64,000 bases of DNA, from NCBI GenBank assembly GCA_050250895.1, contig JBFWNU010000004.1, forward strand, positions 430,934 to 494,933, in the 5' to 3' direction. The position numbers and the translations under genes were made by a program. Origin of the DNA: Vulcanimicrobiota bacterium (GTDB lineage Bacteria; Vulcanimicrobiota; Xenobia; Xenobiales; JADMJV01). Below, one piece after another: positions 1-9,696 of the stretch. The notes below the pieces were generated by a model that was not told where the DNA came from, ran no database searches, and worked only from the letters and a program-made list of their open reading frames with translations. The stretch's first letter is position 1. Each line of letters starts with the position of its first letter.

Positions 1-843
1 CGGAGCCATCCAGGGATACCAACCCAGAAGGTTCCAGGCCGAAGCGTCGAGGACTGCCAACCCCCCTTTTACTTCCACTATCTGAGTCACCAAAAAGCCC
101 GCCGTAGCCACGATGGCCATCCCCGGCTCGACCACCAGTCGAACCCTTCTTCGTCGGGCCAGGCCTTTTCCCAACAGGGCCCAGATACGGGCGGCCGGAC
201 GTTCTCCGCGATACATCTCGGTCAAACCGCCGCCCAAATTGACCAGCTCGGTGGCCGGGAATCGGTCCAGGGCGTGCTCCAACATCTCGAGCAAGCGGCC
301 CGCCCGCTCCACGGTGGCGATCTCACCGGCGTGAACGTGCAACTGGCGCACTTCGAGTTGCCATTGCCTCAGTAGCTCGGCCAGGCGGGGACAGTCGGGG
401 TCAAAACCAAAGCGGCTGGGCTGTTGGTCCCAGCCCGGAAACGATAGCCGCAGGCCTGCCGGGCCGGGTCCGGTTAGGCGGGCCCACTGCTCTAGCTGCG
501 AATAGCCATCGAGATCGGGCAGACACCCCGCTTGCCTCAGTCGGTCCAGTTCCGCGAGCGACCAGTGGGGAGCGGTGGCGTAGAGCGGACGCAAGCCCGC
601 TTCGAGGGCGCGGGTCAGCTCTAACGAGCTGGCCACGTCAGCTCCCAGGCCCAGGTTCGCCAAGCAGCACAGCACCGCCGGACAGCGGTTGGCTTTGACC
701 GAGAAGCAAAGCCTCACTTCACCCAGTGCTTCCAGGTCGCTTCGCAGACTCGAGACCACTTCGGCCAGGCGCTCAGGGTCATAGACCACCAGCGGCGTCG
801 GCAGCTGGCTGGCGGCGCTCAGAATCTGCTCGGCTCGCGTCAC
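1..843 (-). CDS. Fold-type III PLP-dependent enzyme (DAP/Orn/Arg decarboxylase-like), paralog 2; 3' end runs off the window
   Basis: Not in the ORF track; translated by hand. GTG at 843 overlaps the upstream TGA (GTGA). Protein: MTRAEQILSAASQLPTPLVVYD...CFSVKANRCP...GADVASSLEL...SRFG...LHVHAG...VNLGGG...VEPGM...LDASAWNL. Frame is open to position 1. Confidence 0.88.
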   Translation of the reverse strand, partial: MTRAEQILSAASQLPTPLVVYDPERLAEVVSSLRSDLEALGEVRLCFSVKANRCPAVLCCLANLGLGADVASSLELTRALEAGLRPLYATAPHWSLAELDRLRQAGCLPDLDGYSQLEQWARLTGPGPAGLRLSFPGWDQQPSRFGFDPDCPRLAELLRQWQLEVRQLHVHAGEIATVERAGRLLEMLEHALDRFPATELVNLGGGLTEMYRGERPAARIWALLGKGLARRRRVRLVVEPGMAIVATAGFLVTQIVEVKGGLAVLDASAWNLLGWYPWMAP

Positions 844-1976
844 GAATCGAGGGCCCGCAGCATGACTTCGCAGGCGATCAGGGCGTCGACCTCGCGGTCT
901 GGGAGTAGCTCCACCAGGTCGATGACAGCCGGGCATGAAGATCGCACCAATTGCTCGACCAGGCGAACCAGTTCGCGGGGGGTGAACCCGCCGGGCACCG
1001 GGGTGCCAGTAGAGGGAAAGAGGCTGGGCTCAAGGCAGTCGACATCGATGGTGAGGTAAATCGGGCTCGAACTCAGACAGCTCAACCAGTCGCTATCCAG
1101 AGCGCTCAGCCCGGCAAAACGCACGATCCGAGGGTGCTGTTCGTCGTCGCTCACCAGTTGACGCACGCCAACCTGGACCACCCGCTCCAGCCGCTCGTGC
1201 TCCAGGGCCCAGGAAACGAAGTTGCCGTGATGGAGTCGATCACGCCAATCTCCCTCGACGGGTCCGGCATAATCCGAGTGGGCATCGAACTGGACCAACT
1301 GCACGGGGCCTCGGGCCATCATGCCTTGCAGGCCGGCGTAAGTGATGGAATGGTCGCCACCCAACAGCACGGGTCGCCGGCCTTGAGCGAGCAGCAGTTC
1401 GACCACCCGGGCCAGGCGCTCGAAGCACTCACCATTGCTCTGAAAGACGGCCCCGGCCAGATTGCCCAGGTCGGCCAGCCGGCGTCCGGCCAGGACTCTG
1501 CCCCCCTTCACCGGATCAAAGTCAGACCCGGCCCGGCCAAAGAGCTGAGGACTGGCCAGGCGAAGAAAGTCAGGGGCGAGCCTGGACCCGGACCGGTTCG
1601 AGCAGCCCAGGTCGTAGGCTAGACCCAGCACTACGTCGGTAATGGAAGGATCGGCCAGAACCTGTTCCAGGGCAAGCAAAGGACTGGCGAAGAGCCCCCG
1701 CCTTCCGGGCTCGAACCCCGCTCCGGGATGCTCGACTTCGAGCCACCCCTGCTCGACCAGAATGTCCACGGCCCGCTGCATCTGCTCAAAACCGAAGTCG
1801 GCTTCACCCAGAGCCTGATAAGCGGTTTGGCAGCTGCTGGCGATGCGAAAGGCGGAGAGAATCTGGTAGAAACGCTCGTCCAGGGTCTGCTGCTGACCCG
1901 TGCCCGCGTGCAGCATGTGATGGCGCCCGTCCTGATAGTGGCTGCGGACGACTTTAGTGGGGATGCGGAAGCGCAA
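840..1976 (-). CDS. Arginase/agmatinase-family ureohydrolase with ~90-aa N-terminal RRE/wHTH-like extension (putative peptide arginase)
   Basis: Mn-binding motifs GGDHS, FDAHSD, TIDVDCLEP..PSTGTPVPGG. N-terminus looks like beta strands followed by helices, ending in AVDILVEQGWLE. Confidence 0.85.
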   Translation of the reverse strand: MRFRIPTKVVRSHYQDGRHHMLHAGTGQQQTLDERFYQILSAFRIASSCQTAYQALGEADFGFEQMQRAVDILVEQGWLEVEHPGAGFEPGRRGLFASPLLALEQVLADPSITDVVLGLAYDLGCSNRSGSRLAPDFLRLASPQLFGRAGSDFDPVKGGRVLAGRRLADLGNLAGAVFQSNGECFERLARVVELLLAQGRRPVLLGGDHSITYAGLQGMMARGPVQLVQFDAHSDYAGPVEGDWRDRLHHGNFVSWALEHERLERVVQVGVRQLVSDDEQHPRIVRFAGLSALDSDWLSCLSSSPIYLTIDVDCLEPSLFPSTGTPVPGGFTPRELVRLVEQLVRSSCPAVIDLVELLPDREVDALIACEVMLRALDS

Positions 1977-3186
1977 GCTCCTGGTGCTGCTTTCCGTTCT
2001 TCGAGGGTAGCCGGCCGTGGGTCGGTTCCAGCACCTGCAGGCGACCGTCGAGGAAGACGTACTCTCGAGGCAAGGGGATACGATTGAAAAGCCTCGAGTT
2101 GGTCAGGGTGTAGGCCCCCGCCGAGGTGATCAACAGCCGATCTCCGACTTGACAGGGCCCAAGCATGAAGCGACTCTGTCGGCCACTGACATCGCGGCCA
2201 AAAAAATCACCCTCGTAGAGCGTATTGCCGGCCAGCAGCACTTCGGAGTCGGGTCCCGTTCGTGGCGCCACCGCGGCGACTTTGGGCTTGTGCCAGGGAG
2301 CTAGATTCCAGGCCGAAGCGTCGAGGGTCAACAGGCGAACATCCCAATGCCGGTGGAATTCGACCGCGCGAATTTCGCTGACCAGATAGCCGATGGCGGT
2401 CAGGATCCCGCCTCCTGGCTCGAAACGAAAGTAAACCGGCCGCCCCCTACGCCGCGCAAACCGTTCGGCCATGCGAGCGATGGTGGCGAAGGCCTGGCGG
2501 GCGGCCCGCCGCTGGGGGTAGAGATGGAAGAAGCCACCGCCGACGTCGAGCCACTGCGCGTGTTCGTGACGCAAAGCTTGGCTCAACAAAAAGCGGGCTT
2601 TGAAGACCAGAGCCTCGGGAGTGGTCTGGCCCGTATGCAAATGAAATCTCGTCACCTTCAGCCCGTATTGCTCGAGCAAGCTGCCCAGGCGCGGATGATC
2701 GGGCTCGATGCCGAAGCGACTATCGCGGGTGAAGGTGCTATGCCCCTCGAGGGCCGAGGGAAATTCCATCCGAAGTCGCAAGCCCACTTCGCCTCCTGGA
2801 AAGGCCTTCCCGTAGGTCTCGAGTTGAGAGAGCGAGTCTACATCAGGAATGATACCGGCGGCCCGGAAGCACTCGAAATCGGCCACCGAAAAGGCCGGCC
2901 CGGTACAGGAAATCTCGTCGAAACCGGCCGCCTGGGCAAGCTCGAGTTCACCGAGGCTGGCCACGTCACAGCCCAGACCGTGGCTCTGAACCCGCTGCAA
3001 AACCGGCAGGGTATGACAAGCCTTGACGGCCAGGTTGAGCCTGGCATCAGGAATGAGGGCTACGTCCTCGAGCATGCGCTCGAGCAGAAGGTCGAGAGCG
3101 CCAAAGTCGTAGATGATAGCCGGAGTGGGAAGCTCTTGGGCTGCCTCGAGAAGCCGTAAATCGGTCGGCGGATAAAGTTCGGACAA
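1954..3186 (-). CDS. Fold-type III PLP-dependent enzyme (DAP/Orn/Arg decarboxylase-like), paralog 1
   Basis: LPTPAIIYD, AVKAC (PLP Lys), DVASLGEL, SRFG, HLHTG, LDVGGGF, EPGG, SAGAY. The usual GPxCxxxD motif reads GNTLYEGD. Confidence 0.88.
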   Translation of the reverse strand: MSELYPPTDLRLLEAAQELPTPAIIYDFGALDLLLERMLEDVALIPDARLNLAVKACHTLPVLQRVQSHGLGCDVASLGELELAQAAGFDEISCTGPAFSVADFECFRAAGIIPDVDSLSQLETYGKAFPGGEVGLRLRMEFPSALEGHSTFTRDSRFGIEPDHPRLGSLLEQYGLKVTRFHLHTGQTTPEALVFKARFLLSQALRHEHAQWLDVGGGFFHLYPQRRAARQAFATIARMAERFARRRGRPVYFRFEPGGGILTAIGYLVSEIRAVEFHRHWDVRLLTLDASAWNLAPWHKPKVAAVAPRTGPDSEVLLAGNTLYEGDFFGRDVSGRQSRFMLGPCQVGDRLLITSAGAYTLTNSRLFNRIPLPREYVFLDGRLQVLEPTHGRLPSKNGKQHQELALPHPH

Positions 3187-3191
3187 AGCCC

Positions 3192-3752
3192 TCAGGCTAA
3201 TTCCGTCGTTCCGCGAGGGCGACTACCGCCCGCCACCTGGGTGTCGAAGTCGAGCTCGGGGCCCCGGGGACGGCTGCCCCCGGCCACCTGGGTATCGAAA
3301 TCGAGTTCGGGACCGCGCGGACGGCTGCCGCCAGCGACCTGGGTGTCAAAATCGAGTTCGGGCCCTCGCGGACGGCTGCCGCCGGCCACCTGGGTGTCAA
3401 AATTGAGTTCGGGCCCCCGGGGACGGCTGCCGCCGGCCACCTGGGTGTCAAAATTGAGTTCGGGCCCCCGGGGACGGCTGCCGCCGGCCACCTGGGTGTC
3501 AAAATTGAGTTCGGGCCCCCGGGGACGGCTGCCGCCGGCCACCTGGGTGTCGAAATTGAGGTCGGCGCCCAATCCTTCGCGAACCTTGCCGGTGTCAGCC
3601 GAGGCTGAACGGGCAAACGAGGCGGCCTGGCTAGAGGGCGCTTTGACTGGCGCGTTGGCTTGACCACCTTTGGATTTGGAAGCCTCAGGGGGCTTGGTGG
3701 TGCGCTTGGGTCCTTGAGGCGGAGTCCCGCCCGAGCCGATTTTCTTAGCCAT
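3192..3752 (-). CDS. Putative multi-core RiPP precursor peptide (186 aa; ~64-aa leader + 7 cores)
   Basis: Strong RBS (GAAGGAGG) before ATG at 3752 (MAKKIGSGG...). Cores are 4x LNFDTQVAGGSRPRGPE and 3x LDF-type, the last ending RGTTELA. First gene of the operon. Confidence 0.8.
   Translation of the reverse strand: MAKKIGSGGTPPQGPKRTTKPPEASKSKGGQANAPVKAPSSQAASFARSASADTGKVREGLGADLNFDTQVAGGSRPRGPELNFDTQVAGGSRPRGPELNFDTQVAGGSRPRGPELNFDTQVAGGSRPRGPELDFDTQVAGGSRPRGPELDFDTQVAGGSRPRGPELDFDTQVAGGSRPRGTTELA
3210..3560 (-). repeat. In-frame 51-nt tandem repeat x7 encoding the precursor cores
   Basis: Period is 51 nt. Copies differ mainly at synonymous third positions, plus one N>D change. Confidence 0.95.
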
Positions 3753-3834: not shown

Positions 3835-4200
3835 GTGAAAAATCGCGTCAACAGTTACGTCGAGCAGATCATCAACGCCATGGAGGCCGAGCAGCCCTTC
3901 GATGCAGCTCGGGTCCTGGCTACGCTACGAGACCTGCGAGAGCGACTCGAGGTGGTCTATAAAAAATACGAGGGCTCTATCCCCGATGGAACCGAAGAAA
4001 TCCAACAAACCATGCTGGATGGTCTGCAACTGCTGTATCGGGGCCTCGAAGACCTGGAGATGCTGGTATTGGGTGAACCCAGCGAAGAGGATCTCGTCGT
4101 TTCGGCTCTTTCGAACTGCCAGGAAGCAGAGGACTGCTTCAAAGTCGTCGACGACCTGGCCGAGCAGGTGACGGCGACTCAGCCAGGCTTCATGGGCTAA
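3835..4200 (+). CDS. Hypothetical all-helical protein
   Basis: 121-aa ORF divergent from the precursor, 2 nt upstream of the GNAT gene. Confidence 0.7.
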   Translation: MKNRVNSYVEQIINAMEAEQPFDAARVLATLRDLRERLEVVYKKYEGSIPDGTEEIQQTMLDGLQLLYRGLEDLEMLVLGEPSEEDLVVSALSNCQEAEDCFKVVDDLAEQVTATQPGFMG

Positions 4201-4202
4201 AC

Positions 4203-5102
4203 GTGACGCTAGCCGTACGTCCGGGACGGACCGATGACCTTCCCTTCCTCGATCGTCTTTTCCAGGAGTTCTTAGGCGACCCTGAGCGAACCATCTACTA
4301 TCCTCGCTTCGAGCAAAGCAACGAGCTGCTGGCTGAACTCAAAATGTGGGGCGCCGAACTGGCCGATGTCGCCAGAGTGGTCACTCTTGACGCACAAGCG
4401 GTTGGCTTTAGCGGCTATCTGGCCAGTCCCGGCGACGACGATGCCTACCTGATCGGCCCCCTGCTCCGCCAACCCCACCATCAAGAGAAGACCCTGCTGG
4501 CCGTTCTATCGCTGTTAGAACTCGAGGGACAGGTGTTTCAAGCTGTAACCAGTTGCCTGTGCGAGACCAATCTCGAACTATTGGCGGCCTATCGCGCCCT
4601 GGGTTGGAACGAGAAGGCCGGTCAACTCGAGATGGAGTGGAAACGCTCGCGCAACGAGCCCCGGCCTCAGGCCCCGGTGAACCTGCTGGAGCCGGGCCAT
4701 GTCAGGCTTGAAGAAGTTGCCGATGTGCTCGGAGCCGGCCTGGGCTGGCAAGCATCCCCCATCAAGCGAGTGAGGACATTGCTGGAGGAAGGCTATCGGG
4801 TTGGTTATCTGCTCGACCAGGACCAGGTGTCGGCGGCGGCAGTCTGGGTCTACCTGGACGCTACCGATTTTGGGCGGATTGAATATCTGGCTACCAGCCC
4901 GAGTTGTCGCCGCCGGGGATTGGCCGGCCAACTGCTAGACCACATCCTCTGGCACGATTTGCCAGCAGTGGCCGAATCCGCCTTCGTCAGCGTCGAGAGG
5001 GACAATCAGGCAGCCCAAGGCCTCTATCTCGCTCACGGATTCGAGCTCACGCACAAGGCGGTCATGGTGACCCGCCCGAAGACCTCGGGCGGGGCAACCT
5101 GA
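4203..5102 (+). CDS. Tandem GNAT N-acyltransferase
   Basis: C-terminal GNAT motif A (IEYLATSPSCRRRGLAGQLL) and motif B (VERDNQAAQGLYLAHGF). Degenerate N-terminal GNAT (NLELLAAYRALGW). Confidence 0.8.
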   Translation: MTLAVRPGRTDDLPFLDRLFQEFLGDPERTIYYPRFEQSNELLAELKMWGAELADVARVVTLDAQAVGFSGYLASPGDDDAYLIGPLLRQPHHQEKTLLAVLSLLELEGQVFQAVTSCLCETNLELLAAYRALGWNEKAGQLEMEWKRSRNEPRPQAPVNLLEPGHVRLEEVADVLGAGLGWQASPIKRVRTLLEEGYRVGYLLDQDQVSAAAVWVYLDATDFGRIEYLATSPSCRRRGLAGQLLDHILWHDLPAVAESAFVSVERDNQAAQGLYLAHGFELTHKAVMVTRPKTSGGAT

Positions 5103-5123: not shown

Positions 5124-6194
5124 TCAGTCGGCGGAACTGAGATTACGACGGAATCGGCTCTCGAGCCAGCCGGCCTGCTGGGCCGGCAAGGAGCGTCCAT
5201 AGAGCCAGCTGTTGACCGCCTCGTGGAATTTGTCCAACCCGTCAAAGGGGGTGGCCCCGCCCGCCACTTCGCCACGGATGGCCAGCAGCCGAGCACTGGG
5301 CGGCGGCACCGGCTGGCGATAGGCATGCTCGCGAATCCAGGCCAGCTTTCCACCAAGCCTGCCGCGGGCATGCACCATCAGGTCAGGGTCGGCCTCGATA
5401 GCCTTCCAGTCAAGAATCAGCTGGGCGTGGCAATCCGCGAAGTCTTCGGCCGCATTGCCCACCACTTCGGGCGAAGGATAGTCGGCCGGCGAGCTGGTCT
5501 TGCCAAAGGGCGTGTCGGGCTGCTCCGAGCGAAAGCCCGCCGGACTCAGAGCCGCGTCCACCAGATGGCCCACCTCGTGAAAGAGAACGCCCCGAGTCGA
5601 GTCCAGGTCAAAGCAGAGCGAGGCCAACAGCGACACCGCAGTGCCGCCCCCGGCCAGGCCTAAAACGGCAGAACCGTCAGGCAGCGTGCCCAGCGAGGTT
5701 CTCAGGTTCACCGATCGCAGCACGGTCATGGCCCGGGTGCCGGTCTTCTCGGAAAGTTCTTTGACGGCCGCCCGCACCTGCTCGAGTTGGCGCGGGTGGC
5801 GCACCCCAGTGATGGCCACCTGGCAGTCACCCTGGTGGGTCGGCCCGAGGGCCTGGTTGACCCGCCGATGCTCGGCGCAAGTCCCCAGCATGACGAAGCC
5901 TTTAGCCCCACTGATACTGTCCCAGGCAAGCCCGGTCAATCCCGCCACCAGGCCCGGATGCCAAGTTCCGCCGAGGCCGGCCACCAGCGTGAGGGAAGAA
6001 CTCAAATCGCGAAGGTAACCGGCCAGCCTGGGGTCGGCGCAGGATTTGACCGGCCCAGGCACCAGAGCGGCGGCCGGGTCAGGCCACAGGCTAGCCTCGA
6101 ACGTGTCGAGGCAGACCAGCTGCTGCTCGCTGATTGAAGGTGGGCGCGCGTGAGGCCAGTTGCTGGGGCTGACGAGGCTAAGCGGATTCACCAT
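5124..6194 (-). CDS. Putative zinc metallopeptidase (HExxH)
   Basis: VLFHEVGHLVD followed by NAAEDFAD (candidate third ligand). Confidence 0.6.
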   Translation of the reverse strand: MVNPLSLVSPSNWPHARPPSISEQQLVCLDTFEASLWPDPAAALVPGPVKSCADPRLAGYLRDLSSSLTLVAGLGGTWHPGLVAGLTGLAWDSISGAKGFVMLGTCAEHRRVNQALGPTHQGDCQVAITGVRHPRQLEQVRAAVKELSEKTGTRAMTVLRSVNLRTSLGTLPDGSAVLGLAGGGTAVSLLASLCFDLDSTRGVLFHEVGHLVDAALSPAGFRSEQPDTPFGKTSSPADYPSPEVVGNAAEDFADCHAQLILDWKAIEADPDLMVHARGRLGGKLAWIREHAYRQPVPPPSARLLAIRGEVAGGATPFDGLDKFHEAVNSWLYGRSLPAQQAGWLESRFRRNLSSAD

Positions 6195-6289
6195 CTCTAA
6201 CCTAGCCAGCGAGCGTCAAGTGAACGTCATTGCGATTTAACGAACTGTTCGGAAGAAGTTTCGATTCTCGATGTAGAAGAAATTTCAAT

Positions 6290-7588
6290 ATGACGTTGCA
6301 ACTCCAGATCCAACCGCGCACCGCCGAGACCATCATCGCCGCCCTGCGGGCCGGCACCGTCCCCCAAGAGGGCCTGGCTCACTATGCCGTCGGCCTTGAC
6401 CCCCAGCTAGCCGCCCTGCAAGAGCAGATGCGCTTCGTGGCCTCGGGCCGCAGCGCCTATAAATTCATCCGCGGCAGCTACGGCTCGGGCAAGACCTTTC
6501 TCACCAGCCTGGCCGCCAGTCTGGCTCCCGAGCACGGCTTTCTCTTCTCGAAGGTGGTCATCTCCTCCACCGACACGCCTCTGTTCAAGCTGGTCGAAGT
6601 CTATCGGCGAGCCTGCCAGGGTCTGTCGCTGTCGCCTGACCGGGTAGGCGGCGGCCTGCGCAGCCTGCTCGACCGCTGGCTCTACAATCTTGAAGAAAAG
6701 GTGGTCAACCTGCAGGGCCTCGACGAAGACAGCCCCGAGTTCGCCGAAGCCGTCAAGGCCCAGGTGCAACAGCAGTTGACCGTGGTGGGCGACTCGGCCG
6801 GCCGGCTGGCTGCCTGTCTGGCCGCCTATCATCAGGCCCAGCTCGAGCAAGACTTCGAGCAATCGCGGGCCCTGCTCGACTGGATGGCCGGCGAGCCCAA
6901 GGTGGCGGCCCACCTCAAGCGCGTGGCCGGTGTCACCGGCCAACTCGAAAACAGCGACGCGCTGGCCTTTTTGCGCGGCCTGCTCGAGGTCATGCGGGCC
7001 TCGGGTTACAACGGCCTGGTGCTGGTGCTCGACGAGGTCGAGACGGTGTTGCGCCTGCGCCGGCCCGAACGGCACAAAAGCCTCGAGGTGCTGCGCCAAC
7101 TGATCGACGCCTGCGACCGCCACGAGTTTCCCGGGTTGCAACTGCTGGTCACCGGCACTCCCGATTTCTTCGAGAGTTCGCAGGGCGTGCCGGCCCTGGC
7201 GCCCCTTAACGACCGCATCAAGGTGCTGTTTGAAGAGGGTCAGCCCGACAATCTGCGCCAACCCCAGATCCGCCTGGCCGCCTTCGGAGCCGAACGCCTG
7301 TCCGAAGTGGCCCGCAAAGTGCGCGATCTGTATCCTGGCGAAGGGCGCCACCGCTTTAGCGAGGCTGTCATCGGGCAGATGGTCGATCGCTTCACGGCTG
7401 GCTTCGGCGGTCGGGTCGATGTGGTGCCGCGCCTGTTCTTGCGCGAGCTGGTGCACCAGTTGGACCTGGCCGATCAATATCCCGACTATGACCCGCTGGG
7501 CGGCCTGCGCACCCAGGTCGACGACTCGGCTCTCACTCCCGAAGAAAAAAGCCTGCTCGAGCCGGCCGGCAAAGAGATCGAGCTGTGA
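6290..7588 (+). CDS. brxD: BREX system ATP-binding protein BrxD (DUF2791-like)
   Basis: IIAALRAGTVP..GL..YAVGLD, Walker A IRGSYGSGKT, ISSTDTPL, Walker B LVLDEVET, DNLRQPQIRL. ATG at 6290 preferred over 6230. Confidence 0.85.
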   Translation: MTLQLQIQPRTAETIIAALRAGTVPQEGLAHYAVGLDPQLAALQEQMRFVASGRSAYKFIRGSYGSGKTFLTSLAASLAPEHGFLFSKVVISSTDTPLFKLVEVYRRACQGLSLSPDRVGGGLRSLLDRWLYNLEEKVVNLQGLDEDSPEFAEAVKAQVQQQLTVVGDSAGRLAACLAAYHQAQLEQDFEQSRALLDWMAGEPKVAAHLKRVAGVTGQLENSDALAFLRGLLEVMRASGYNGLVLVLDEVETVLRLRRPERHKSLEVLRQLIDACDRHEFPGLQLLVTGTPDFFESSQGVPALAPLNDRIKVLFEEGQPDNLRQPQIRLAAFGAERLSEVARKVRDLYPGEGRHRFSEAVIGQMVDRFTAGFGGRVDVVPRLFLRELVHQLDLADQYPDYDPLGGLRTQVDDSALTPEEKSLLEPAGKEIEL

Positions 7589-9696
7589 CGGCCACGGCGG
7601 CCATCAACCCCTTCTTTCGCCTCTCCCAGCGGCTGCGCGACAACATCGTCAGCCGGCTGGGCTGGCGTTCTTTGCGACCGGTCCAAGAGCTTTCTATCGA
7701 CCCTCTCATCGAGGGCAAGAATGCGCTGGTGCTGGCTCCCACCGCCGGCGGCAAAACCGAGGCAGCCATGCTGCCTCTGCTCGACTCGCTGGTGGCTCGT
7801 CCGCCGGCCAGCACGGCCATCATCTATCTCTCGCCGTTGCGGGCTTTGATCAACAATCAAGAAGACCGGGTCGAATTCCTGGCCGGGCTGGTGGGGGCCA
7901 CCTCGTTCAAGTGGCACGGCGAGGTGCCTCAAAACGAGCGCAACCGCTATCTGACCCAGCCCGACCCGGTGCTGCTCATCACCCCCGAGTCGCTCGAGGT
8001 GATCGTGAGCAGCCGCGGCTACGACAAGAAGAAGCTGTTCGGCGACCTGCGGGCGGTGGTTATCGACGAGATCCACGCCTTCGCCGGCGACGATCGGGGT
8101 GACCACCTGGTGGCCCTGCTCGAGCGCCTCTCGCGCATGCTTGGTAACGACTTTCAGCGAATCGGTTTGTCGGCCACCGTGGGCAACCCGGCCAAACTGC
8201 TCGAGTGGTTGTGCGGCCAGAGCCAGCGCCCCTCGCAGATCGTCGACCCGGGGCGGGCCAAAGCCCGGCGTCTCATCGAGGTGCGCCCGCTGGCCCCCGA
8301 AGAAGACCGCGGTTTCATCGGGTCGCTTTTGGCCCAGGGTAAGAAGTCGCTGCTATTCACCGATTCCCGCGGCCAGGCCGAGAAACTACAAAAGGCCATG
8401 GCGGGGGCGGGAGTGCGTACCCTGGCCCACCACAGCTCGCTTTCCAAAGAGCTGCGCGAAGAGACCGAGAACGCCTTTCGGGCCGGCAGCAACTGTTGCA
8501 TCGTGTGCACCTCGACGCTGGAGTTGGGCCTGGATGTGGGCGATCTCGACCTGGTCATGCAGTGCGACGCCCCCTATTCGGTGTCGGCTTTCTTGCAACG
8601 CCTGGGCCGCACCGGCCGGCGCGAAGGCAGTCGCGGCCACATGTGTTTTCTCACCGATCAAGAGTGGAGCTTTCTGCGCGCCTGTGCCCTGGTCAGCCTG
8701 GCCGTCGAAGGCTATGTCGAGCCGGTTCGCCCCACCACCCGGGCCTCGCACGTGTTCGTGCAACAGTTGCTGTTGCGGGTGCTCGAGGGCGGCGACACGG
8801 GCATCGCCAGCCTGCTGGCCGGCATGGGCAATCCCTACTGCTTTCGCGATCTGAGTGCCCGCGAGCGCGAAGAGATCGTGGCTCACCTGCTGGCCATGGG
8901 CGCCCTGGCCAAGGTCGACTCGCGCCTGATCTTTGGGCCCGAGGGCGAGAAGCGCTTTGCCACCAGTAACTTTCGCGACCTCTACTGCGTGTTTGACTCG
9001 AGCAACCAGCTCACGGTGGTCACCCGGGCCAACCGCACGGTGGGCAGCATCGAGGCCTGGTTCGCCCAATCGCTGGGCAAGACGGGCTTTGTCTTTTCGC
9101 TGGGCGGGCGCGCCTGGAAGGCCCTCGAGTGCGACTGGAATCGGGGCGTGCTGGTGGTCGAGCAGTCCCTGGGCGGGTCGGCTCCCTCCTGGACCGGCCC
9201 TCCCCGACCGCTCTCGCGGCGGCTGGCCGAAAAGATCCGCGACCTGCTGGTCGAGGTCGAGCCGGTGGCCTTTTTGGCCGAGCCCGCTCAGGCCGTGCTC
9301 GACAAGCTGCGGGGCGAGTGGGGCCGACGCCTCGAAGACGGGCCCACCGTCGAGGCGGTGGGCAAACGCCTGCGTATTCTCACCTTTGCCGGCGGTCAGG
9401 TGAACAATCTGCTGGCTCGCTATCTAGAGCTGCACATGGGCAGCCGGGTGGCCAGCAACAACTACTGGCTGATGGCCGATCTCGAAGCGAGTCGGCTGGC
9501 CGAGATCCTCACCTGCATCAGTGGTCCCGACGACCTGGCCGCGGCCACTGTCGAAGTGCCCCGCGGTCGGCTGTCGAAGTTTCAAGAATTACTGCCCCCC
9601 CAGCTCGAGCGCGAGTTCTTGATGGAAAGACTCTACGACATTCCGGCCACCCTCGAAGTGGTCGAACGCCTCAAGGAAGCAAGATGGCAACTGTAA
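7585..9696 (+). CDS. brxHI: Lhr-like DEAD/DEAH helicase, BrxHI type
   Basis: LGWRSLRPVQ, APTAGGKT, YLSPLRAL, TPESLE, DEIH, LSAT, TSTLELGLDVG, QRLGRTGRR. Coupled to brxD by a GTGA overlap. Confidence 0.85.
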   Translation: MTATAAINPFFRLSQRLRDNIVSRLGWRSLRPVQELSIDPLIEGKNALVLAPTAGGKTEAAMLPLLDSLVARPPASTAIIYLSPLRALINNQEDRVEFLAGLVGATSFKWHGEVPQNERNRYLTQPDPVLLITPESLEVIVSSRGYDKKKLFGDLRAVVIDEIHAFAGDDRGDHLVALLERLSRMLGNDFQRIGLSATVGNPAKLLEWLCGQSQRPSQIVDPGRAKARRLIEVRPLAPEEDRGFIGSLLAQGKKSLLFTDSRGQAEKLQKAMAGAGVRTLAHHSSLSKELREETENAFRAGSNCCIVCTSTLELGLDVGDLDLVMQCDAPYSVSAFLQRLGRTGRREGSRGHMCFLTDQEWSFLRACALVSLAVEGYVEPVRPTTRASHVFVQQLLLRVLEGGDTGIASLLAGMGNPYCFRDLSAREREEIVAHLLAMGALAKVDSRLIFGPEGEKRFATSNFRDLYCVFDSSNQLTVVTRANRTVGSIEAWFAQSLGKTGFVFSLGGRAWKALECDWNRGVLVVEQSLGGSAPSWTGPPRPLSRRLAEKIRDLLVEVEPVAFLAEPAQAVLDKLRGEWGRRLEDGPTVEAVGKRLRILTFAGGQVNNLLARYLELHMGSRVASNNYWLMADLEASRLAEILTCISGPDDLAAATVEVPRGRLSKFQELLPPQLEREFLMERLYDIPATLEVVERLKEARWQL

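Follow-up and report, generated by a model that had tools for sequence, protein, structure and literature searches.

At the left edge of a 64,000-nucleotide stretch of a Vulcanimicrobiota bacterium genome (the window; G000:C4:430934-494933), and continuing into the 15 kb to the left of its position 1, which we examined as locus L002, lies a tightly coupled minus-strand operon. Its genes encode, in order, a repetitive precursor peptide, a fold-type-III pyridoxal phosphate (PLP) enzyme (PLP1), an arginase with a predicted RiPP recognition element (RRE), a second fold-III paralog (PLP2) and a PLP enzyme with a predicted gamma-family fold, giving the operon two fold-III enzymes and one gamma-family enzyme. 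The best explanation, to which we assign a probability of about 60%, is that this is the biosynthetic operon of a rare, uncharacterised family of peptides that are made on the ribosome and modified after translation (RiPPs). Most likely, the operon makes a small modified peptide by an uncharacterised route.

The five reading frames are intact and their starts are coupled. Only 5 nt separate the precursor stop (3192) from the TTG start of PLP1 (3186); PLP1 (1954..3186, minus strand, 410 residues) overlaps the TTG start of the arginase (1976) by 23 nt; and the arginase TGA overlaps the GTG of the next frame as GTGA at 843-840. Because of this last overlap, the GTG at 843 appears a likelier PLP2 start than the ATG at 936. 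The arginase start itself is uncertain, an ATG at 1916 being the alternative. Only the 5' part of PLP2 (1..843, minus strand) is in the window, the entire gene spanning C4:430700-431776 and ending at C4:430700. The fifth gene, co-directional and 491 codons long (C4:429261-430736, just left of the window), runs into the end of PLP2 for 37 nt, and a GGAGG lies 9 nt ahead of its ATG. The initial annotation of the window had placed the precursor, PLP1, the extended arginase and the second paralog, with the gap and the overlaps, where we find them, and it had foreseen that the operon runs on beyond position 1, as the end of PLP2 and the gamma-family gene to the left now confirm.

The precursor gene (3192..3752, minus strand; open reading frame (ORF) from an ATG) encodes 186 residues and has AAGGAGG 6 nt upstream of its ATG, in line with the strong ribosome-binding site noted earlier. 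A K/P/S/A-rich N-terminal region of 64 residues is followed, at residues 65-183, by seven 17-residue units of the form L[N/D]FDTQVAGGSRPRGPE, the final one ending GTT, and by a terminal ELA. Each unit has its own short acidic/hydrophobic stretch ahead of the core. In the DNA, these are seven tandem 51-nt units (3204..3560, minus strand), which Tandem Repeats Finder reported at 3226-3570 with a period of 51, 6.7 copies, 92% matches and a score of 541. Across the seven units, 18 nucleotide columns vary: 12 synonymous third positions and one non-synonymous column (N/D) in codons 1-15, and five columns in the last two codons, four of which vary in the final unit only and one of which is shared with unit 6. 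Since synonymous columns outnumber non-synonymous ones by 12 to 1 in the first 15 codons, the repeat frame is, on this codon-level evidence, under purifying selection and not merely a recent DNA duplication.

No Pfam or NCBIfam family matched the precursor apart from Pfam CHZ (histone chaperone; E 6.6e-11), a match that we rejected as a repeat-summed artefact in which no single stretch passes. A search with the seven-core precursor among 5.8 billion proteins (102-326 residues; 8000 candidates scored) returned only its own record, P0271. This public record holds a 109-residue form of the precursor that stops within the third repeat; its ending may be a contig break in the repeat array, in which case multi-core precursors of such kind may be under-represented in assemblies.

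We next consider where else these genes occur together. A contig scan of metagenomes with the gamma-family PLP alignment fetched 80 loci. In four of them (L134, L135, which is almost a duplicate of L134, L144 and L174) there are, in addition, an ortholog of PLP1 and an arginase with the extension; the same trio is present in one of 401 Streptomyces genomes (L180). This makes four distinct related clusters (L134, L144, L174 and L180), each with one fold-III PLP enzyme, one gamma-family PLP enzyme and an RRE-arginase. In all four, a small ORF of 53-63 residues lies beside the fold-III gene. The encoded peptides end in TLGGSRPRQIS (L174, 60 residues), SLAGSRPSGN (L134, 53 residues), TLGGSRPRLSDSVH (L144, 63 residues; shorter form GGSRPRLSDSVH) and GAMGTRAAGN (L180, 56 residues), and a search of 5.8 billion proteins with the single-core peptide alignment added one more peptide, P0275, ending LAGSRPSGN. 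Shine-Dalgarno sequences were checked for the window precursor and the three metagenome peptides, and the L180 peptide has a GGAAGGG stretch before its ATG, read by eye in the DNA.

In the peptides of all five distinct clusters, a G-[S/T]-R core is invariant, and ahead of it runs a short acidic/hydrophobic stretch of strand-like character. The first Arg of SRPR is invariant and the second is not (SRPR, SRPS and TRAA all occur), so that the comparison gives no support to the earlier idea that both Arg residues are modified; the Ser/Thr next to the conserved Arg is as invariant as the Arg itself. Related clusters are single-core, and the window's copy is the only multi-core member found: the seven-core precursor described in the initial annotation is present as stated, and the protein searches brought up no seven-core relative. 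When this high-G+C genome is translated in six frames, GGSRPR turns up dozens of times by chance, and the motif alone is therefore not evidence. What counts is the position of the ORF, its Shine-Dalgarno sequence, its size and its recurrence in a low-G+C locus. The five distinct clusters differ strongly in G+C content and gene order, and across them precursors, RRE-arginase and both PLP enzymes recur together. This recurrence of a core-sharing peptide beside the enzymes, with the RRE-fold arginase, supports the assignment of the locus to a RiPP pathway.

The related clusters also contain further candidate tailoring and export genes. The two actinobacterial clusters, L134 and L180, have in addition a PqqD-like gene and one for an aKG-HExxH peptide beta-hydroxylase, as well as a GNAT-like gene and two genes for ABC transporters. 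Only in these two is the PqqD-like gene followed by a 385-393-residue protein matching the hydroxylase model TIGR04267 (L134:6716-8178 and L180:1593-3025), with scores of 39.5 and 40.3 bits, respectively, against a cutoff of 40. An ABC exporter and a GNAT are encoded in L144.

The arginase consists of two parts. Its arginase/agmatinase-fold (ureohydrolase) catalytic domain (840..1691, minus strand) matches PF00491 over residues 115-374 (E 7.2e-50; 170.4 bits against a cutoff of 22), and the approximately 110 N-terminal residues have no Pfam assignment. In a family alignment of 23 extension-bearing members (A1), the motifs GGDHS, DAHxD and DxD, which we take to be binuclear-Mn ligands, and E356 are invariant in all 23, and the domain is apparently catalytically competent, judging by these kept motifs. 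An AlphaFold2 model of residues 1-110 (m44172f8a8846) has a predicted local distance difference test (pLDDT) score of about 90 over residues 1-80 and shows three strands followed by three helices. Foldseek placed TbiB1 with leader at the top of its matches (E 2e-4), followed by TigE, MccB, LynD/TruD and PqqD; VIA-align gave Z scores of 11.9 for TigE, 10.7 for MibB, 10.0 for MccB, 9.9 for TbiB1 and 9.8 for lasso B1, with 11 of the 13 chains at Z of at least 8 being RiPP enzymes or RREs. Because its best structural matches in the PDB are leader-binding domains, the extension (approximately residues 1-95; 1692..1976, minus strand) is by predicted fold a PqqD-like RRE, which agrees with the RRE-arginase named in the initial annotation. 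A complex prediction combining the arginase family alignment with precursor residues 51-98 scored 0.22 and 0.13 against a mark of 0.32.

In NCBIfam, the arginase reaches the equivalog cutoff neither of agmatinase nor of arginase nor of HutG (formimidoylglutamase), scoring 115.8 bits against 174.3 for TIGR01230, 131.8 against 302 for NF002564 and 70.2 against 227.6 for TIGR01229; its best matches are agmatinase models. All 23 family members match PF00491, whereas PF12640, the OspR family, is matched by one of the 23, at only E 0.2, and the PF12640-family motifs, as given in PMC12703449, are absent from A1. Named homologs (P0002-P0030) include proteins from Curtobacterium, Plantibacter, Streptomyces, Pseudomonas and Pseudogulbenkiania. 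The source genome has separate agmatinase-like and LysA-like paralogs elsewhere.

PLP1 and PLP2, described earlier as two decarboxylase-fold paralogs, are indeed paralogous, at 34-35% identity. Both match PF02784 (PLP1, E 3.5e-18, 66.3 bits; PLP2, E 2.3e-15, 57.1 bits; cutoff 23.4), and PLP2 matches PF00278 as well (E 1.8e-8). PLP1 is diaminopimelate/carboxynorspermidine-decarboxylase-like: its best PDB sequence match is the diaminopimelate (DAP) decarboxylase 1knw (E 2.2e-22), and the PDB matches also include BtrK, a fold-III decarboxylase that acts on carrier-protein-bound glutamate. Neither enzyme reaches the equivalog cutoff for LysA (TIGR01048; PLP1 101.2 and PLP2 116 bits against 297.9) or NspC (TIGR01047; 45.1 and 34.6 bits against 409.05). 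K55, presumably the PLP-binding Lys, is invariant in five of five fold-III sequences together with HxHxG and the glycine-rich GGG and EPG motifs, whose roles we take from fold-III enzymes in general. The clade has motifs of its own, DASAWN and YExD, the latter also conserved within it, and the usual Cys is replaced in PLP1. PLP1 is 34-47% identical to the fold-III genes of L134, L174, L144 and L180. The fold-III tree places PLP2 as the sister of a clade formed by the cluster-linked PLP1 genes (support 94/96), and a more LysA-like paralog on contig C7 is separate. A second fold-III paralog was found only in the window's cluster and not in the four related ones.

The 491-residue protein had no Pfam family at E<=0.01 (PF01053 was not matched) and no NCBIfam family. 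Its AlphaFold model (pLDDT 94.7) aligned in Foldseek with CalE6 and with cystathionine/methionine gamma-lyases and synthases (CGL, MGL and CGS) at E values of about 1e-14 and target-normalised TM scores of 0.63-0.75; a profile search of PDB sequences reached a Cys/Met PLP enzyme at only E 4.3e-4, and the ESM Atlas agrees with the fold. On these models, the protein has the gamma-family (fold-type-I) PLP fold of Cys/Met metabolism. With HMMER, 340 relatives were found at E<=0.001 among 1.84 billion representative proteins; P0122-P0124 are the nearest. K278, within an SGLK motif, is invariant in 40 of 40 aligned relatives, alongside SSGMAA and DTT motifs, and we infer that it is the Schiff-base Lys. 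Some relatives (P0125, P0132, P0143 and P0171) are fused to methyltransferase, Ser/Thr kinase plus FGE-sulfatase, or Mur-ligase domains. All four related clusters pair a fold-III enzyme with an enzyme of this fold-type-I family, and the initial annotation's picture of a class built on paired fold-III enzymes has to be given up.

The gamma-family enzyme keeps this company more widely. Of the gamma-PLP loci, 41 have 1.5 kb or more of flanking sequence on each side, and in 10 of these a fold-III gene lies within 6 kb (12 of 80 among all loci); every fold-III-linked gamma-PLP gene falls into one 31-row clade of the gamma-PLP tree (support 97). In three loci, L114 (4989-12279), L128 (260-8318) and L139 (12-5635), the PLP pair adjoins an Asn-synthase-like, cyclase-type gene in what look like lasso-peptide-type clusters. 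L114, the one locus compared with NCBIfam models, has the pair flanked by a lasso B2 gene (70.6 bits; cutoff 33) on one side and, on the other, by the Asn-synthase-like gene, which matches the lasso cyclase model (346 bits). An HprK-related kinase is also found in L114, an ABC transporter in all three loci, and candidate lasso precursors at L114:11209-11385 and L139:4374-4535. The pair therefore occurs in a second, unrelated kind of peptide pathway. We know of no described PLP-tailored lasso peptide; no search aimed at one was made.

How might these enzymes act on the peptide? The RRE would dock the precursor, each of the seven units supplying its own docking stretch, and the Mn-arginase domain would hydrolyse the conserved Arg to ornithine (Orn), releasing urea; we consider this first step likely. 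In a second step, the gamma-family enzyme would form a vinylglycine-type intermediate from a homoserine ester or S-adenosylmethionine, to which the Orn delta-amine would add, yielding N-delta-(3-amino-3-carboxypropyl)ornithine. The fold-III DAP/carboxynorspermidine-decarboxylase-like enzyme would then remove the new free alpha-carboxylate, leaving N-aminopropyl-ornithine, a peptide-borne polyamine side chain with a net change from Arg of +15.04 Da. PLP2 would act at a second site or in a second round. Further decoration may come from the oxygenases and a GNAT, and proteolysis would release seven products per precursor. We put forward aminocarboxypropyl transfer followed by decarboxylation only tentatively. 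It is suggested because a fold-III decarboxylase needs a free alpha-amino acid, which the peptide gains only through such an addition, because the fold-III and gamma-family enzymes are always paired in these clusters, because Mur24 and Mur23 document the same two-step logic, and because BtrK shows that a fold-III enzyme can act on a protein-tethered amino acid. By extension, and no less tentatively, the aminopropyl-ornithine would be a new, hypusine-like post-translational modification, and the PLP pair could serve as a transferable aminopropylation unit that acts on lasso peptides as well, with the window's version perhaps iterating the extension by means of its extra decarboxylase.

Eliminations and beta-replacements are likewise reactions of gamma-family (Cys/Met) PLP enzymes. 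Within the same RiPP family, and after the same Arg-to-Orn conversion, a different PLP chemistry on this peptide is about as likely as the scheme above. The Orn delta-amine might be transaminated to give a glutamate-semialdehyde residue that then cyclises, the Ser/Thr hydroxyl might undergo beta- or gamma-replacement, or a small-molecule co-substrate might be made and then joined to the peptide. Nothing in the data fixes the donor or the nucleophile, the Ser/Thr beside the Arg is invariant and could be the true site of PLP-linked chemistry, and the 2-oxoglutarate (2OG) oxygenases and the aKG-HExxH hydroxylase show that the clusters carry further chemistry; yet the constant pairing of the PLP enzymes, including in lasso-type clusters that have no arginase, and the decarboxylase's need for an alpha-amino acid, available on the peptide only after an amino-acid moiety is appended, fit append-then-decarboxylate better. 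An arginase/agmatinase combined with enzymes of the ornithine/DAP decarboxylase fold is also a classical polyamine gene set, and after hydrolysis and decarboxylation free Arg might be built up into a polyamine or an unusual amino acid; the repeat protein would then be unrelated, or a regulator or storage protein. The agmatinase models among the arginase's best matches and the non-RiPP contexts of most gamma-PLP family members are in keeping with such a small-molecule pathway. We nevertheless judge it improbable, given the RRE-fold domain on the arginase, a same-core peptide adjoining the fold-III gene in five of five distinct clusters of differing G+C content and gene order, NCBIfam scores that all lie far under the equivalog cutoffs, the PqqD-like gene, peptide hydroxylase and ABC exporters of the relatives, and the genome's separate agmatinase-like and LysA-like paralogs. 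Very improbable, in our estimate, is a recently acquired, non-functional or decaying island in which the repeats expanded by neutral slippage without a product. The cluster was found in none of 40 close relatives and none of 400 other genomes of the phylum, no exporter or protease adjoins it and no sequencing run is listed as holding the stretch; the five intact, coupled frames, the kept catalytic motifs and the ratio of 12 synonymous changes to 1 non-synonymous change among the repeat units speak against decay.

Several observations weigh against an RRE-guided Arg/PLP pathway as the function of the operon. We infer its three steps from genes and predicted structures. The role given to PLP2 is ad hoc because the relatives manage with one fold-III enzyme. 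Most gamma-PLP family members sit in housekeeping-looking contexts (GlnD, MutS, GST and PhaC), and the family is therefore not RiPP-specific. The Pfam PqqD model (PF05402) matches the arginase extension in none of the 23 family members, and the RRE model was built on a 4-sequence alignment. The long N-terminal region of the precursor lacks the L-S-A/D-L helix motif of single-core leaders. To the left of the window, where the initial annotation proposed looking for a protease, a transporter or more tailoring genes, there are candidate tailoring genes; the window's cluster has neither an adjacent exporter nor a recognised leader peptidase. Finally, an arginase ortholog was found in none of the 40 close relatives and a PLP1 ortholog in none of the 400 genomes sampled from the same phylum, meaning that the cluster is not seen to persist in its own lineage.

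Other searches with the arginase gave similar results. Neither the 68 genomes of the family around G041 nor the 401 sampled from the class around G042 yielded the long arginase, with only four candidates scored per genome and misses possible. A contig scan with alignment A1 yielded 80 ordinary agmatinase loci, picked up by generic catalytic motifs and set aside; none had a match to PLP1, the gamma-family enzyme or the precursor, L031 had a weak PLP2 match, and the best of the 80, L015, has an unrelated context.

The genes around the operon are less clearly connected with it. Two overlapping 2OG-Fe(II) oxygenase-like genes (C4:428023-429266; L002:12090-13333) converge on the operon end. The second of them shares 54% identity with a gene of the Streptomyces cluster L180 and 45% with one adjoining the gamma-PLP gene in L145, and it probably belongs to the pathway. 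Further out on this side are an M3-like peptidase and a Ser/Thr kinase. Divergent from the operon on the plus strand are a gene for 121 residues with no assigned family (3835-4200; ORF) and a GNAT acetyltransferase of 299 residues (4203-5102; PF00583, E 1.8e-9); whether this pair (3835..5102) belongs to the cluster is uncertain. GNAT-family genes flank L134, L180 and L144 too, and the 295-residue GNAT-like genes of L134 and L180 are 41% identical to one another. Orthology of the window's GNAT to these two was considered and rejected, BLASTP giving only an 11-residue match (E 0.046). A 356-residue protein with an HExxH motif (FHEVGH; 5124..6194, minus strand; found as an ORF and in translation) drew no Pfam or NCBIfam match, and none of the related clusters has a homolog of it. 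Its membership is uncertain: it is a candidate peptidase, perhaps the missing one and perhaps unrelated. At 6230-9696 lie a BrxC/BrxD-family ATPase (PF10923, E 1e-118) and then a DEAD/Lhr-like helicase, a couple that resembles a defence-type pair and that we take to be unrelated to the operon. A promoter and terminator scan found sites no more frequent than in shuffled sequence.

PLP enzymes are very rare in RiPP maturation. If the proposed chemistry is true, it would mean that polyamine side chains on peptides can be reached by a ribosomal route, give a function to a gamma-family PLP clade (about 340 representative clusters) that lacks family annotation, and offer a portable two-enzyme module for aminoalkylating peptide amines that would be useful in peptide engineering. 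Even with different chemistry, the family is easily and cheaply tested: the precursor is short, the soluble enzymes number three or four and the mass shifts are predicted.

Among known systems, the closest to the first step is KgrD, a Mn-dependent PF00491 arginase of enteropeptin biosynthesis that converts peptide-bound Arg to ornithine, according to PMC12703449. The window arginase belongs to the same Pfam family, and the same conversion on a RiPP peptide is proposed here. KgrD needs a thiomorpholine first made by a radical SAM enzyme, and the Orn is later N-methylated (PMC12703449), whereas the clusters described here have PLP enzymes in place of a radical SAM gene. OspR, FlmR and OhkR, of landornamide and selidamides, likewise act as maturases on a precursor and turn peptidyl-Arg into peptidyl-Orn and urea, as proposed here, but they form the family PF12640, not PF00491, and in the portions of the source at hand a fused RRE is not described for the OspR type. 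Of the two parallels drawn in the initial annotation, only the one with enteropeptin extends to the protein family. We considered and set aside the sinefungin cluster (bioRxiv 10.64898/2026.05.21.726688), which combines an arginase with a vestigial precursor bearing a VAGG motif; by its authors' account it contains no PLP enzymes, and it uses a B12 radical SAM enzyme. In the literature covered, which left subscription journals and supplements outside, we found no described RiPP in which a PF00491 arginase fused to an RRE goes together with PLP enzymes of the fold-III and gamma families; this agrees with the initial annotation, which knew of no characterised RiPP class built on paired fold-III enzymes.

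For the PLP steps, the parallel is with muraymycin and caprazamycin biosynthesis, in which the PLP enzyme Mur24 places a 3-amino-3-carboxypropyl group on a substrate amine by way of a vinylglycine-type intermediate and the PLP decarboxylase Mur23 then leaves an aminopropyl group (PMC10491745 and PMC9814697). The likeness is mechanistic only, with no homology shown: Mur24 is ACC-synthase-like according to the review, not cystathionine gamma-lyase-like, and its substrate is a nucleoside, not a peptide. NspC and LysA, the best sequence matches of PLP1 and PLP2, share their fold-type-III PLP fold and act on an alpha-amino acid that ends a longer amine-bearing chain, as aminocarboxypropyl-Orn would offer, but PLP1 and PLP2, at 101-116 bits for LysA and 35-45 bits for NspC, remain far under the cutoffs. 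In loline biosynthesis, a gamma-type Cys/Met PLP enzyme, LolC, which appends an aminocarboxypropyl group to nitrogen, is combined with an ornithine-decarboxylase-like PLP enzyme, LolD; that pathway differs in being a fungal small-molecule route whose acceptor is free proline. Multi-core RiPP precursors, such as those of cyanobactins, hold several core copies, each with a flanking recognition stretch, in the manner of the window's precursor; their enzyme set is unrelated, and the relatives of the window's cluster are all single-core. Set beside these systems, the probable RiPP family and its enzyme combination appear to be new, and the window copy is the sole multi-core member found and the sole one with a second fold-III paralog.

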